Assembly: GCA_965224705.1 (NCBI GenBank)
Contig: OZ245056.1
Coordinates: forward strand, 2,176,001 to 2,240,000
Length of the DNA: 64,000 bases
Source: Spirochaetaceae bacterium
Lineage (GTDB): Bacteria > Spirochaetota > Spirochaetia > DSM-2461
Reading direction: 5' to 3'
Below, piece after piece: positions 26,573 to 33,902 of this stretch. The notes beneath the pieces are model-generated. The model worked only from the letters and a program-made list of their open reading frames with translations, did no database searches and was not told where the DNA came from. Numbering within the stretch: position 1 is the first letter of the stretch; every line of letters begins with the position of its first letter. The position numbers were made by a program, and so were the translations under genes.

Positions 26573-29500
26573 ATGAAAAAAATTACCCTTCTACTGATGC
26601 TACTAATCATCGCCGTACTAACCCTACCGGCCCAGGAGAAAGTGGCCCTTGTTATCGGCAACAGTGCCTACGAGCACGCGGCCTCGCTTAAAAACCCGTT
26701 AAACGATGCCCAGGACATCGGAGCCACGCTGGAAAATCTGGGCTTCTCGGTTACCCGGGCCCTGGATGCCAGCCGGGGAGAAATCCAGCAGGTGGTGGAC
26801 CGCTTTCAGGAGGCATCTTCCCGAAGGGGAACCAAGGTGGCCCTGTTCTACTACTCCGGCCACGGGGTGGAATACGAGGGAAGCAATTACATAATTCCCG
26901 TGAATGCGGAGATCCGCAACGAGTATGAGCTGGTGGACCAGGCCTTTAGCGCAGACCGGATTGTGAAGGCCATGGACCGGAACCGGGCCGCCTTTAACCT
27001 GGTGATACTGGATGCCTGCCGGGACAATCCATTTTTTTCAAGCCGAAGCGGCAGCCGGGGCCTGGCCTCGATGAGCGGGGGAGGGCGGAGCATGATAGTC
27101 TTTGCCACCAGTCCAGGCCAGGTGGCCGCCGATGGTTCGGGCCGCAACAGTCCGTTTACCAAAGCCTTCATTGAGCATGCCGCCACGCCGGGTTTGGAAG
27201 TCACCGCCATGATGAAGGCCATCAACGGGACGGTGCAGAAACTCACCAGCGGCAGACAGGTGCCCTGGTACACAACATCTTACTCTGAAGACGTGTTTTT
27301 AAGCGCAGCCGAAGAACTGACCGGCGCGGATGGCCTTGTGGGCAGGGTGAACCGGGAAATCGCCGCCCTGGAAGCGGCCATTGCCCAGAGGGAGAAGGCC
27401 ATTGCCTCGGCCCGGACCGAGGCGGAAAAGCGGCTTCTGGAACTGGAACAGCGGCGGGCACGGGCCGAGGAAAGTGCCAAAAGGATGCAGGCCGAACAAC
27501 TGGCGGAAATCGCCCTTCGCGCCAAAGATTTCCTGCAGCAGAAGGAATCGGAAGATGCCCTCCGTGCGTCAATGGAAAAACAGCTCTCCGCCCAGAAAGC
27601 CGCGCTCACCGAGCAGGCAAAGGCACGGCGTGGAGAGCTTCAGAAGCTGAACGAAAAGAATGCAGCGGAGGCGGGAATATGGTTACGGCTTGAAAAAATC
27701 GTCAGTGTAAAAAATGCGATAGCCGAAATAGGCCAACGCTTTGATGCGGCCATTGCCAAAATGGAAAAAGAGGTGAACGCTCTCTACGATCAGCAGAAAA
27801 CGGCGGTGAAGGTCGAAAACCCCAAGGAACCCTTTGAAACCCAGGAAGAATACGAGACCCGTATCCGGGGAATGGAGAGGAGCATCGAAGGCAAAAGAAG
27901 GACCGAATTAAACCGCCGCCGCCGTGAGTTCAACAATACCCGCAGCACGGAGTTGGCGGACTTCCAAAAACAGCTTCCCGAACTCAAAAAAGATCTGGAT
28001 GGCCGCCGGTTTACCCTTGATTTCTCTGCCACGACGGTGGAGGTGTCCCCATTTAATGCCAAAACCAAGCAGTTTCCCATGGAAGTAAGACCGACCGACC
28101 AGCGGTTCAAATTTGCCGTACCGGTGGCCCACACCCTGAAGGCCTCTGGCTTTGAGGCCATGAAGAAGGCATACTATCAGGTGTATCAGGCCGACCAGAC
28201 CGGCGGATTGGCCGGAGAGCTAACCTACACGGCCAAAGAGGCCCATCCCGACATCTGGGTGCTGGAGGCTAACCGGGCCCGGGTGGTGAATCTGCTGGAA
28301 AACGATGCGGAAGTCGTCCGAACGGTGACGCCGGAGGAGCAGATGCTGGTGAGCACGGCCGGGGGCAAGGTAGACACTCTGGCCGCCGCGGTGATGCTGG
28401 AATCGCAGGGTGGACGGGCCAATGTGAGTGTCAACGGCAAACCGGCGGGCACCACGCCGGTGCTCTACACCCTGCCGGACTATGCGGGAACGGTGAAGGT
28501 GGAATACAGCTGGGGTGCATCCCAACGGGTGTTCTCCATCGTCCTGCATTCCGGGTTGAATGCTCCTGCCATTGCCTCCACCCAGAGACTTGAGCGGCGC
28601 TGGGGCAGGGCCGACACCGCCCGGCTGGGGCTGGCCGTAGAGGGCCTGTCCCCGGCCAACAAAAGTAAAACCGAGAATGCTACGCCAAGTTTGAGCTGGA
28701 ATGCCGCCTCTGGGGCGGCGGGTTACCAGGTGCAGATGGCAAGTAGCCGGGGAGGGCTGGAAAAGGCTTCGCCTGTTGGGGTTGCCTCTCGCCGAAGAAG
28801 CCGTGGAGCCTATACCCCTGCGGAACCGCTGAAAAGGAATCAAACCCACTACTGGCGGGTGAGGGCCGTGGATGGAAACGGGCATTTTGGAGCATGGAGT
28901 GCCGTTGAGTCAATCGCCGTCGTGCCAATCGCCGTCGCGTCAATCAATGTACATCCAGTTCCTGTTCCTGATGGCTATGTGCTGGTGGAGGGGGGGACGT
29001 TTCGGATGGGGAGCCCTTCCAGTGAGGATGGCCGAGATGGCGATGAGAAACAGCATAGCGTAACGGTGGGATCGTTTTACATGAAGGCGACCGAGGTAAC
29101 GCAGAAAGAATGGCGGAAGGTGATGTGGAGGAATCCTTCCCGTTTTAGGGGGAATAACCGACCGGTGGAGAATGTGAGCTGGTTTGATGCGGTGAAGTAC
29201 TGCAATGCCCTGAGCAAGAGGGAGGGGCTGACGCCGGTGTACCGGATAAATGGAGATAGTGTAACGGCGAACTGGAGTGCGGACGGGTACCGCTTGCCGA
29301 CGGAGGCAGAGTGGGAATATGCGGCCCGGGGAGGGAGCCAATCACAGGGGTATAAGTATGCGGGAAGTAATAATGTGGATGAAGTGGGTTGGTACGGTGG
29401 TAATTCCGGGAGTAGCCCGGTGAAGGACAAGAAGGCCAATGAGCTGGGGCTGTATGACATGAGTGGGAATGTCTGGGAATGGTGCTGGGACTGGTATGGG

Positions 29501-32081: not shown

Positions 32082-33902
32082 ATGAAAAGACAAATCCTTC
32101 TACTTGCGGCCCTCACCATCACAGCCATGATGCTGTCGGCCCAGAACAAAACCGCACTGGTTATTGGCAACGGCGAGTACGAAAACAACTTTGCCGCACT
32201 GGCCAACCCGGTGCCCGAGGCCAGGAGAATGGCGGCGGCCCTGGAAGACATCGGTTTCAAGGTAATACGGGCCTACAACGTGCAGAACCAGGAACGGTTT
32301 GATGCCCTGTTCGCCATGTTTGAAGAAGAGATAAAGGCCCGTGGCGGCATCGCCCTGTTCCACTACGGCGGCCACGGCGTACAGGTGGACGGCCAGAACT
32401 ACCTGCTGCCCACCGAGCGGGACATTCCCGATGAACGGCGGGCGCGAACCCGCGGCATCAACGTGGCCGATGTGGTATCGGCGATGGAATCCGCCCGGGC
32501 CGATGCCAACATCGTGATACTGGATGCCTGCCGTGAAAACCCCTTTGGCCGCGGTGCGGCCCGCGGTCTGGCCCGTGTGGATGCGCCTCCCAACAGCATC
32601 GTCGTCTATGCGGCGGATGCCGGAGAAACCGCCCAGGACGGCCTGTTCACTCCCACCCTGCTCAAGTACCTGACCCGTCCGGGGATGAGCCTCACCGACA
32701 TTCTGATGAACACCCGCCGGGATGTGCGGCAGGCATCGGGCAACCGCCAGCGTCCCGGCGAATACAGCATGCTGGAAACCGACATCTATCTGGCTGGATC
32801 CTCAAGTTCCGCGCCTGCCCGCCCCAATGCCCCATCGTTCAGCCTGGAGCAGAGCTACGGCAGCCTGGAGGTATCGGTTCAAACGCCGGGCACCCTGTAC
32901 CTGGATGGAAAATCCATGGGCCGGATTCCACCCGGTTCCAGGGCCAGGCTCACCGACATTCCCGCCGGTCGGCATAACCTGGAGATGCGCTACGGGGGCA
33001 AAAGCGAAAGCAAAACCATCACGGTACAGGTAAACCGCTTTCTGGCCGTGGCCTTTAGCTGGGTGGAGCGGCCTGACGGGCTTGAGGGTTATGTGCTGGT
33101 GGAAGGGGGCACGTTTCGGATGGGGAGCCCGTCAAATGAAGTGTCCAGGGATGATGATGAAGAGCCGCAGCACAGCGTAACGGTGGGATCGTTTTATATG
33201 AAGGCTACCGAGGTAACGCATCAGGAATTTCTGGCATTTCTGAACTCAGCGGGAGTATCCCGGACAGGGGAGCTTAACGGCAATGAAATCATTGATATGG
33301 ATGATGAGGATGTCGCCATAGCCTATTCGGGTGGACAGTTTAAGTTTACCGGTTCCTCGTATGCCGCATCGTTGAATACCCCGGTGATAGAGCAAACCTG
33401 GTATGGAGCGGTGGAGTACTGCAATTGGTTAAGCAAGGAGGAAGGACGAACACCGGTGTACCGGATAAACGGCAGCAGTGTAACGGCGAACTGGAGTGCG
33501 GACGGATACCGCTTGCCGACGGAGGCTGAGTGGGAGTATGCGGCACGGGGCGGTAAAAAATCAAGGGGGTATAAGTATTCCGGGAGTAATTCGGCGGGCA
33601 GTGTGGGATGGTACGATGAGAATTCTGGAAGTAAAACCCATCCTGTAGGGCAGAAGCAGGCCAATGAGCTGGGATTGTATGACATGAGTGGGAATGTCAG
33701 GGAATGGTGCTGGGATTGGTATGGGGATTATTCAAGCGGGAGTCAGAGAGATCCCAGAGGGCCGTCTAGCGGGTCGCGCCGCGTGTACCGCGGCGGCAGC
33801 TGGTACTACCCCGGCTGGTCCTTGCGGTCTGCCGATCGCTACGACAATTCGCCTGGCATTAGCTACCGCAACTTCGGCTTCCGCCCCGTTCGGAGGACGT
33901 AA
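32082..33902 (+). CDS. DGR target 2: signal peptide + caspase (C14) + PEGA-like + FGE-sulfatase (CLec fold)
   Basis: ALVIGN..Y, YGGHG, ILDACR; YRLPTEAEWEYAAR, GLYDMSGNVREW, RGGSW, GFR. Confidence 0.9.
   Translation: MKRQILLLAALTITAMMLSAQNKTALVIGNGEYENNFAALANPVPEARRMAAALEDIGFKVIRAYNVQNQERFDALFAMFEEEIKARGGIALFHYGGHGVQVDGQNYLLPTERDIPDERRARTRGINVADVVSAMESARADANIVILDACRENPFGRGAARGLARVDAPPNSIVVYAADAGETAQDGLFTPTLLKYLTRPGMSLTDILMNTRRDVRQASGNRQRPGEYSMLETDIYLAGSSSSAPARPNAPSFSLEQSYGSLEVSVQTPGTLYLDGKSMGRIPPGSRARLTDIPAGRHNLEMRYGGKSESKTITVQVNRFLAVAFSWVERPDGLEGYVLVEGGTFRMGSPSNEVSRDDDEEPQHSVTVGSFYMKATEVTHQEFLAFLNSAGVSRTGELNGNEIIDMDDEDVAIAYSGGQFKFTGSSYAASLNTPVIEQTWYGAVEYCNWLSKEEGRTPVYRINGSSVTANWSADGYRLPTEAEWEYAARGGKKSRGYKYSGSNSAGSVGWYDENSGSKTHPVGQKQANELGLYDMSGNVREWCWDWYGDYSSGSQRDPRGPSSGSRRVYRGGSWYYPGWSLRSADRYDNSPGISYRNFGFRPVRRT
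33768..33885 (+). repeat. DGR variable region VR2
   Basis: 118-bp ungapped match to TR; 18 of 23 mismatches at TR adenines. Confidence 0.95.

Follow-up and report, generated by a model that had tools for sequence, protein, structure and literature searches.

We analysed a 64,000-nucleotide stretch (hereafter the window; positions 2,176,001 to 2,240,000 of contig OZ245056.1, assembly GCA_965224705.1) from the genome of a mollusc-associated spirochaete. As judged from sequence, the window holds a real, recently silenced diversity-generating retroelement (DGR) with two targets, T1 and T2, which are predicted to be exported proteases carrying a MALT1-like C14 (caspase) domain and a C-terminal C-type lectin (CLec) head of the formylglycine-generating enzyme (FGE) type. 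In both genes, the variable repeat (VR) within the head differs from the template repeat (TR) of the DGR predominantly at template adenines. The source genome (G000) is a single contig of 3.0 Mb and 95% complete; it yields 11 C14 matches and contains 10 CLec genes plus the TR, four of these genes being caspase-CLec fusions (T1–T4). Other genomes are referred to by label, among them G012, a congener, and G113, which represents another family. The best named matches of T1 and T2 are from Spirochaetia, and the T2 stretch is present in 14 public runs, each time as assembled contigs; the named holders are mollusc metagenomes, the other holders are coded. Runs with a small share did not enter the reading of the habitat. 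The contig scan for homologs provides a broad sample and not the closest relatives.

Domain architecture of the two targets

The two target genes and their domains are as follows.

26573..29677, + strand: target gene T1, 1034 aa; signal peptide, MALT1-like C14 domain, helical stalk, alpha/beta plus PEGA-like domains, FN3/Ig domain and FGE-type CLec head with VR1
26573..26632, + strand: T1 signal-peptide-like leader, aa 1-20, without lipobox Cys; read from the sequence; P0055 (T1 ortholog) and T2-type homologs show this pattern too
26639..27289, + strand: T1 C14 domain, aa 23-239; Pfam Peptidase_C14, E 3.5e-40
27308..27997, + strand: T1 long helical (coiled-coil-like) stalk, aa 246-475; AlphaFold2 helices 246-278, 283-361, 369-415 and 424-475
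28007..28552, + strand: T1 alpha/beta domain (aa 479-594) and PEGA-like beta domain (about aa 600-660); model secondary structure
28622..28927, + strand: T1 FN3/Ig-like domain; Pfam Ig_Rha78A_N, E 8e-10, and FN3 matches with Z 11-12
28973..29668, + strand: T1 FGE-type CLec head; Pfam FGE-sulfatase, aa 801-1032, E 6e-51
32082..33902, + strand: target gene T2, 606 aa; signal peptide, MALT1-like C14 domain, PEGA-like beta-sandwich and FGE-type CLec head with VR2
32082..32141, + strand: T2 signal-peptide-like leader, aa 1-20, without lipobox Cys; heuristic, kept in 62/63 caspase-first homologs
32148..32789, + strand: T2 C14 domain, aa 23-236; Pfam Peptidase_C14, E 3.4e-28; its last strand is the modelled dimer interface
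32856..33056, + strand: T2 PEGA-like beta-sandwich; model strands aa 259-325
33087..33893, + strand: T2 FGE-type CLec head; Pfam FGE-sulfatase, aa 336-604, E 2e-55

The original prediction had assigned to both proteins a signal-peptide-like start, a C14 domain with an intact His-Cys dyad and an FGE/CLec domain carrying the VR, as well as a long coiled coil in T1 that could act as a stalk, and all of these features were recovered. The dyad is formed by His97 (26861-26863) and Cys149 (27017-27019) in T1 and by His98 (32373-32375) and Cys150 (32529-32531) in T2. The regions described as linkers, however, turned out to be folded domains, that is a beta-sandwich in T2 and alpha/beta, PEGA-like and FN3-like domains in T1. 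As anticipated, Pfam matched Peptidase_C14 and FGE-sulfatase in both targets, but not PEGA in T2; among T2-type proteins a PEGA match was obtained for the G012 ortholog only (E 0.01), and for the T1 domain a weak one is seen in the homolog P0124.

The AlphaFold2 model of T1 (predicted local distance difference test (pLDDT) 73.8, predicted template modelling score (pTM) 0.43) displays the caspase domain, four long helices and the alpha/beta, PEGA-like and FN3 domains, whereas the head is poorly modelled because the alignment mixed head types. For the middle domain of T1, Atlas matches were confined to unnamed clusters (scores 0.83-0.86, below 0.9), and most of what the fold search matched was caspase and FN3. 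The model of T2 (pLDDT 89.6, pTM 0.53) is confident per domain and comprises the caspase (23-236), a flexible linker (246-256), the beta-sandwich (259-325) and the CLec head. Foldseek placed TvpA (2y3c) on top for T2 (E 1e-19), followed by FGE-fold proteins and MALT1.

Residues 6-676 of T1 are colinear with a caspase-stalk protein that ends in a hydrophobic hairpin and is encoded by a two-gene pair at about 217-222 kb in G000, while residues 676-1034 match the lipoprotein-Ig-CLec gene that overlaps it. The same gene pair is also present in G012 and G009. The Ig module of T1 is in addition the building unit of two giant FN3-repeat lipoprotein-like genes of about 2190 and 1190 aa (G000:C1:2348134-2341559 (-) and 2170736-2174314 (+), respectively), the shorter of which has a divergent C-terminal CLec.

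Template repeat, variable repeats and CLec heads

34369..34486, + strand: TR; 33 A and 18 variable codons, theoretically allowing about 6e18 protein variants
29543..29660, + strand: VR1 (T1); mismatches to TR at 14/33 A versus 2/85 non-A positions (Fisher p 1e-7)
33768..33885, + strand: VR2 (T2); mismatches to TR at 18/33 A versus 5/85 non-A positions (Fisher p 2e-8)
29661..29920, + strand: 3' tract common to both targets, with GC-rich hairpins (repeats D15 and D19; DNA fold); putative initiation of mutagenic homing (IMH) or cis signal

The 3' tract following the VRs is unlike that of the TR itself and folds into hairpins. Among 13 VR peptides from G000 and close records, 10-15 of the 18 adenine codons differ from the TR, as compared to 0-3 of the 21 other codons in 12 peptides and seven in the remaining one. 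Comparison of T2 with its remote paralog T3 reveals 132 differences in 1686 bases (7.8%) outside the VR, while within the VR 13/33 bases at TR adenines but merely 3/85 other bases differ (binomial p 5e-7). The VR of T4 is more drifted, with 19/85 non-A mismatches, and is followed by an orphan second copy of the TR (L004:7361-7244 (-), corresponding to G000:C1:1539360-1539243), which has kept the TR upstream sequence and carries a target-type 3' tract at its end. The 3' halves of VR2 and VR3 are closer to this orphan copy than to the adjacent TR. Directly upstream of the TR lies a heptamer tandem repeat of about 13 units (34171-34285), of which the orphan copy has one or two.

Formylglycine-generating enzymes possess a catalytic cysteine pair near the C-terminus. 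The VR-bearing tails of T1 and T2 are free of Cys, and the last 45 residues contain no Cys in 46 of 67 aligned T2-type rows and one in 18 rows. A working FGE enzyme was therefore rejected as an identity of the head, as the cysteine pair is absent and a VR is present; the head reads instead as a non-enzymatic, TvpA-like domain whose predicted ligand-binding codons have been rewritten by the DGR. Contigs of four of the 14 public runs, compared at 28900-34150, a section that does not reach the RT, were fragmented and mixed with paralogs and relatives and provided no usable spectrum of VR alleles. Contigs from RNA runs overlap parts of T2 and TR-like ends, which is not proof of transcription.

The protease domain

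MALT1 is the closest solved fold of the T1 caspase (VIA Z 27.1, root-mean-square deviation 2.1 A over 207 aa, 28% identity), and phmmer aligned the two sequences with an E of 9e-16. His and Cys are kept in all 67 aligned T2-type rows; an apparent loss of the His in one homolog proved to be a pattern artefact. Asp45 and Asp147 of T1 align with the two S1 aspartates of MALT1, whereas T2 has Glu46 in place of the first and Asp148 as the second. At the first S1 position the 67 T2-type rows have Glu in 47 and Asp in 20 cases. Position 186, which we take from motif spacing to be the counterpart of MALT1 Glu500, is acidic in 67/67 rows, and residues 157 and 161 are basic (Arg/Lys) in 67/67 rows. An acidic S1 pocket that would fit a basic P1 residue is accordingly found in the predicted active sites of both T1 and T2. 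MALT1 itself binds P1 Arg via Asp365, Asp462 and Glu500 and is activated by dimerisation through beta6 (PMC4357240).

The idea that the targets may be activated by ligand-driven dimerisation received some support from modelling: a two-copy model of the T2 caspase forms a homodimer via its last strand (beta6-beta6; score 0.51 versus 0.00 for the best of three controls), but the model may reflect solved relatives and is silent on control by a ligand. Contacts coincide to at least 86% between the dimer runs, pLDDT is at least 84, and in a calibration of the score the mark was reached by 20/30 solved homodimers and 1/23 monomers.

Strictly defined, paracaspases have one or more Ig domains ahead of the p20 domain (PMC6426788). 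Strand 1 of the T1 caspase begins three residues past the leader, and because the caspase domain thus starts right behind the leader, T1 and T2 are not strict paracaspases, although they are MALT1-like in fold. A tandem of leader-caspase genes was noted elsewhere (L003:3437-5515 and 7582-9594 (-)); their N-terminal halves are near-identical, and their C-terminal parts are divergent and end in Phe as in outer-membrane barrels.

Export and location

Signal peptides were scored by a hydrophobicity/charge heuristic, run without a negative control. The leaders of T1 and T2 comprise 20 aa with a basic-hydrophobic-small-residue (n/h/c) pattern and no Cys, and this pattern is conserved among homologs: 63 of 120 T2 matches are caspase-first, and 62 of these 63 have a hydrophobic leader of 14-45 aa. 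In a wider sample of 79 loci of the exported-caspase clade across many phyla, 50 have a leader-like segment by a stricter version of the heuristic. No secretin was found in the 95% complete G000, which argues that T1 and T2 are probably periplasmic rather than released. We infer that both are Sec-exported and probably reside in the periplasm. The leader could also serve as an uncleaved membrane anchor; in both cases the protease would face the periplasm.

State of the DGR in this genome

34516..35243, + strand: HRDC accessory gene, split into 34516-34668 and 35100-35243; Pfam HRDC positions 4-24 and 34-68; repeats D7, D8, D16 and D17
35243..35599, + strand: avd accessory gene, intact; Pfam bAvd, E 6e-16
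35596..36753, + strand: DGR reverse transcriptase (RT), inactivated by an in-frame insertion with stops; intact homologs are 93-96% identical to both halves
35910..36072, no strand assigned: miniature inverted-repeat transposable element (MITE), 163 bp, bounded by terminal inverted repeats and flanked by TA at either end; seen in the sequence, with genome-wide copies

The HRDC gene was split by repeated mobile DNA. The MITE family has at least 141 near-full-length copies in G000 (311 BLAST hits), with varying flanks and frequent 2-bp duplications, and its ends match a transposase remnant located between the two targets (30955-32016). Rescue of the RT by stop-readthrough was rejected, given five stops within the insertion. 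A trans-acting DGR RT elsewhere in G000 was sought and none was found: a search with a profile built from 15 open RT frames matched only pieces of two DGR RTs, in addition to frames of group II type. The two intact RT frames of G000 are 426 aa long and of group II intron type (one was checked and has RVT_1 and GIIM), and further fragments are of the same kind. Thus, with its RT broken by the MITE, the DGR is off and the repertoire is frozen in G000, and the heads cannot be called hypervariable in this genome today.

The break is recent, because other records contain intact RT homologs of 332 and 345 aa with 93-96% identity to both halves of the window RT; one of these intact RTs appears to share a contig with the T1 ortholog. 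Near-identical records with an intact RT carry different VR alleles, which argues that diversification is real at the population level, and the DGR is probably live in close relatives. The differing alleles represent past or between-strain variation. That recognition is diversified, as originally proposed, is supported insofar as adenine-focused divergence of the heads occurs next to near-invariant proteases (T1 and its ortholog P0055 share 222/225 caspase residues, but 26/39 in the VR); it does not extend to G000 itself, where the local RT is inactivated and ongoing diversification is not expected.

A second, decayed DGR of G000 (L002:12277-13538, i.e. G000:C1:526.3-527.5 kb), consisting of HRDC and an interrupted and truncated RT, adjoins two CLec genes. 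A matching TR was not found in the genome, and the end of an RNA-run contig reads like a template for its VRs. The 382-aa record P0321 bears both RVT_1 and FGE-sulfatase Pfam marks and possibly represents an RT frame running into its own TR.

The same architecture in relatives

Exported caspase-CLec pairs had been thought unusual in a spirochaete, which did not hold: exported proteins combining caspase and CLec are common in Spirochaetia, and exported caspases of the T1/T2 clade are common across phyla. In G012, HRDC, an intact RT and the TR adjoin a T2-type target, whose VR has 17/34 A and 1/84 non-A mismatches. Comparison of the G012 TR with 21 fetched non-TR loci yielded 14 with at most four non-A mismatches, four with indels and three that have drifted. 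In G113, a core target composed of leader, caspase and CLec lies beside an intact RT, with 20/35 A mismatches and one non-A mismatch in 100 nt. A split form is found in a distant Spirochaetales metagenome-assembled genome (MAG), in which a gene encoding caspase, PEGA and membrane anchor overlaps a lipoprotein-CLec gene with the VR, followed by HRDC, an intact RT and the TR (19/40 A and 1/102 non-A mismatches). A related RT is present in 20/401 genomes of the class.

A tree of 57 caspase domains, hand-chosen from fetched loci, includes eight fused DGR-type targets, whose distribution needs three changes, at least two of them forced by well-supported branches. Taken together, the predicted link between caspase and variable head recurs: fusions occur in three genomes and belong to two caspase clades, and there are split gene pairs besides.

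The two contigs of G012 (L044-L073) together show one TR, one intact RT and at least 14 clean targets. These include lipoproteins, Ig/FN3-repeat proteins and a tandem array of small leaderless zinc-ribbon-like coiled-coil proteins. Besides FGE-type heads, Lcl_C (DUF1566), the second common DGR target fold, is seen as head of caspase-stalk proteins and lipoproteins with very different tails (P0124, P0126 and relatives; G000:C1:1009448-1007943). The search for a template of the Lcl_C heads, run on G000 and 20 loci, gave six matches, of which none is Asn-rich; as no template was found, they do not count as demonstrated DGR targets.

Comparison with known systems

The following comparisons draw on parts of the cited papers. 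As the original prediction stated, caspase-CLec DGR targets are known from cyanobacteria: Wu et al. (PMC5758913) list four DGR targets with Peptidase_C14 and FGE-sulfatase in class b4 of their Table S1, all cyanobacterial. T1 and T2 share with these the Pfam domains, their order, the C-terminal CLec with VR and remote paralogs spread by transposons. The orthocaspase-CLec targets described by Vallota-Eastman et al. (PMC7517822) are mostly predicted to be cytosolic, the remote peptidase-CLec target AFW94847.1 being putatively non-cytoplasmic; here, in contrast, there is a leader, a spirochaete host, a 230-aa helical stalk in T1 and split pairs, a distinction drawn from published descriptions. 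The at least 14 clean targets of G012 compare with a maximum of seven remote targets in the survey by Wu et al. (PMC5758913).

Nimkulrat et al. (PMC4891356) described an HRDC-type DGR in Treponema with lipoprotein targets, remote targets and loss of the RT. The present system resembles that of Treponema denticola (PMC4891356; PDB 2y3c) in its spirochaete host, HRDC gene, exported FGE-type CLec, several remote targets and frequent RT loss with leftover targets. It differs in that avd and HRDC co-occur and in that T1 and T2 have leaders without Cys and a caspase domain, whereas TvpA-type targets are mostly lipoproteins and have, as described there, no enzyme domain; the word 'caspase' is absent from the main text of PMC4891356. 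With MALT1 (C14B), the targets have in common the fold, dyad, acidic S1 pocket and modelled beta6 dimer and, in T2, a beta-sandwich directly after the catalytic domain; unlike MALT1, they have no death or Ig domains ahead of the catalytic domain, are predicted to be exported, carry a CLec head and, in the T2 type, mostly have Glu for the first S1 Asp.

C14 combined with FGE-sulfatase was found in 33/671 (4.9%) prokaryotic caspase homologs by Asplund-Samuelsson et al. (PMC3501461), who also noted frequent N-terminal helices, likely signal peptides. The relevant parts of this and another metacaspase/orthocaspase survey (PMC6426788) read the FGE domain as an enzyme and make no mention of DGR rewriting. 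According to Roux et al. (PMC8144416), most cellular DGR targets have a membrane segment or a signal peptide; a C14 term was not found in that work as far as 11 of its 13 supplement files are concerned (all except files 9 and 12). No publication on exported caspase DGR targets in spirochaetes was found in the mostly open-access literature, on which supplement files 9 and 12 of Roux et al. may bear. The ingredients are known one by one, but the recurring combination of exported caspase and DGR-CLec in spirochaetes, fused and split, appears to be undescribed.

Hardly any cellular DGR target has a known function, and a built-in, assayable enzyme would provide a direct read-out. If ligation of the head switches the protease on, ligands of DGR libraries could be found by fluorescence, and the role as 'antigen sensor' proposed for cellular DGRs could be tested outside the cytoplasm. 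The findings also suggest what the exported MALT1-like proteases of bacteria, a large group not yet studied, may do, and they point to an envelope repertoire that is diversified throughout the genome in mollusc-associated spirochaetes.

A proposed receptor-protease model and its rivals

Our preferred reading, to which we give slightly less than an even chance, is that T1 and T2 are receptor-proteases of the envelope, probably of the periplasm, which are switched on by ligand-driven dimerisation. That is, the head would bind a foreign or host molecule reaching the envelope, such as a phage ejection protein, a competitor effector or a host peptide, and binding would cluster two molecules. The protease domains would then pair through beta6, as in MALT1, and cleave after Arg/Lys; the substrate would be the bound molecule itself or a signal-relaying envelope protein. 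The DGR has equipped individual strains with differing heads, and the protease has stayed almost unchanged. Binding of this kind has a precedent in Acinetobacter, where FGE-fold proteins bind incoming effectors of the type VI secretion system (Lopez et al., 10.1101/2021.05.21.445229).

Several observations weigh against this reading, of which ligand, substrate and gating are all parts that we infer. The pTM values of the T1 and T2 models leave the domain arrangement unfixed, and the dimer model may have passed owing to memory of solved MALT1/caspase dimers. Only 2/14 clean G012 targets carry a caspase, which indicates that it is the head family, and not a protease domain, that makes a protein a DGR target; since this DGR type mostly rewrites non-protease heads, targeting alone is no proof that the head controls the protease. 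Among 20 other spirochaete DGR RT loci (from 18 genomes, many on short contigs) a caspase is found in one (G113), and the 79 loci of the exported-caspase clade show a CLec fusion in 12 and a nearby RT in one case, the C-termini being mostly of other kinds. No conserved substrate or relay neighbour was found among 95 open reading frames (ORFs) at 11 loci. Finally, both DGR RTs of G000 are broken and G009 retains VRs without an RT match, implying that ongoing diversification is dispensable for some time.

The main rival holds that the DGR diversifies CLec adhesin heads, which recombination and insertion sequence (IS) elements graft onto many exported proteins, caspases among them, protease activity being uncoupled. 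This is what the mostly lipoprotein or Ig-repeat nature of the clean G012 targets, one of which sits between two transposases, would lead one to expect, and heads have evidently been swapped, with T2 and P0002 being identical in 214/220 caspase but only 131/230 CLec scaffold residues. The C-termini of T1-type proteins (n=43, overlapping sets) are likewise mixed, i.e. FGE-CLec in 5/43, Lcl_C in 14/43 and late hydrophobic segments in 22/43, and on the caspase tree the fused label is not clustered (92/500 shuffles were as low). We nevertheless regard this explanation as rather unlikely, considering that the protease stays intact and near-invariant beside a variable head, that the caspase fusion is the RT-adjacent target in three genomes and that caspase and CLec genes remain overlapping in split pairs. 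Alternatively, the proteins could be constitutive Arg/Lys proteases following the logic of gingipains, with the head, an adhesin or exosite, holding the protease on the surface of a host or competitor and the DGR re-aiming it. Gingipain R is indeed an exported Arg protease of clan CD, the T2 stretch occurs in mollusc metagenomes among others, the genus has expanded sets of CLec and caspase genes (10 and 11 in G000, respectively), and two paralogs have a C-terminus that, read by eye, resembles an outer-membrane barrel. But with neither a secretin found in G000 nor a lipobox nor a prodomain, with homologs also in non-host records such as a subsurface metagenome, and with dimer-activated MALT1 instead of monomeric gingipain as nearest structure, we consider it quite unlikely. 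Improbable in our view is envelope-triggered suicide (abortive infection) by a ligand-activated protease that kills the cell, as in cyanobacterial and Thiohalocapsa DGR conflict systems. The hydrophobic hairpin is missing from T1 and T2, an exported protease lacks direct access to cytoplasmic death effectors, and no conserved MoxR, vWA or STAND neighbours occur among the 95 ORFs at 11 related loci, a single NACHT gene lying about 6 kb from a remote paralog. Suicide would fit the location of the loci among transposases, AAA-PD-(D/E)XK and toxin-antitoxin genes, and the Gly-rich hydrophobic hairpins ending split-form caspases might, speculatively, act on membranes; caspase-type effectors with DGR-diversified CLec sensors have been proposed for multicellular bacteria, with sensor roles in conflict systems (Dore et al., PMC10907252; Kaur et al., PMC7159879).

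A bolder reading, which we think unlikely, would be an antibody-like capture-and-cleave system of the spirochaete envelope. A DGR would supply a library of heads, and a MALT1-like protease gated by dimerisation would be joined to them by fusion or by co-expression, so as to destroy or report phage proteins, competitor effectors, host antimicrobial peptides or similar invaders. If true, spirochaetes would possess an extracytoplasmic caspase that is re-programmable by nature and with which each lineage gains new specificities.

Neighbouring genes

Neighbours in the window were read from the ORF list, with a Pfam scan of some of them.

30339..31129, - strand: repeat-containing PD-(D/E)XK-like gene, frameshifted, between the targets and not part of the system; NERD E 0.001, below cut-off
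30955..32016, - strand: transposase remnant; DDE_Tnp_1, E 2e-5; its end matches the MITE end

The transposase remnant is presumably IS1182-like, a label that we assign from related loci. Multi-copy AAA-ATPase and PD-(D/E)XK genes (window 37214-39121; L002:6641-10313) repeatedly flank DGR and target loci. Close to T4 lies a gene resembling sterol reductases of the ERG4/ERG24 family (L004:4635-6002 (-), E 5e-65), with a NACHT gene further on.

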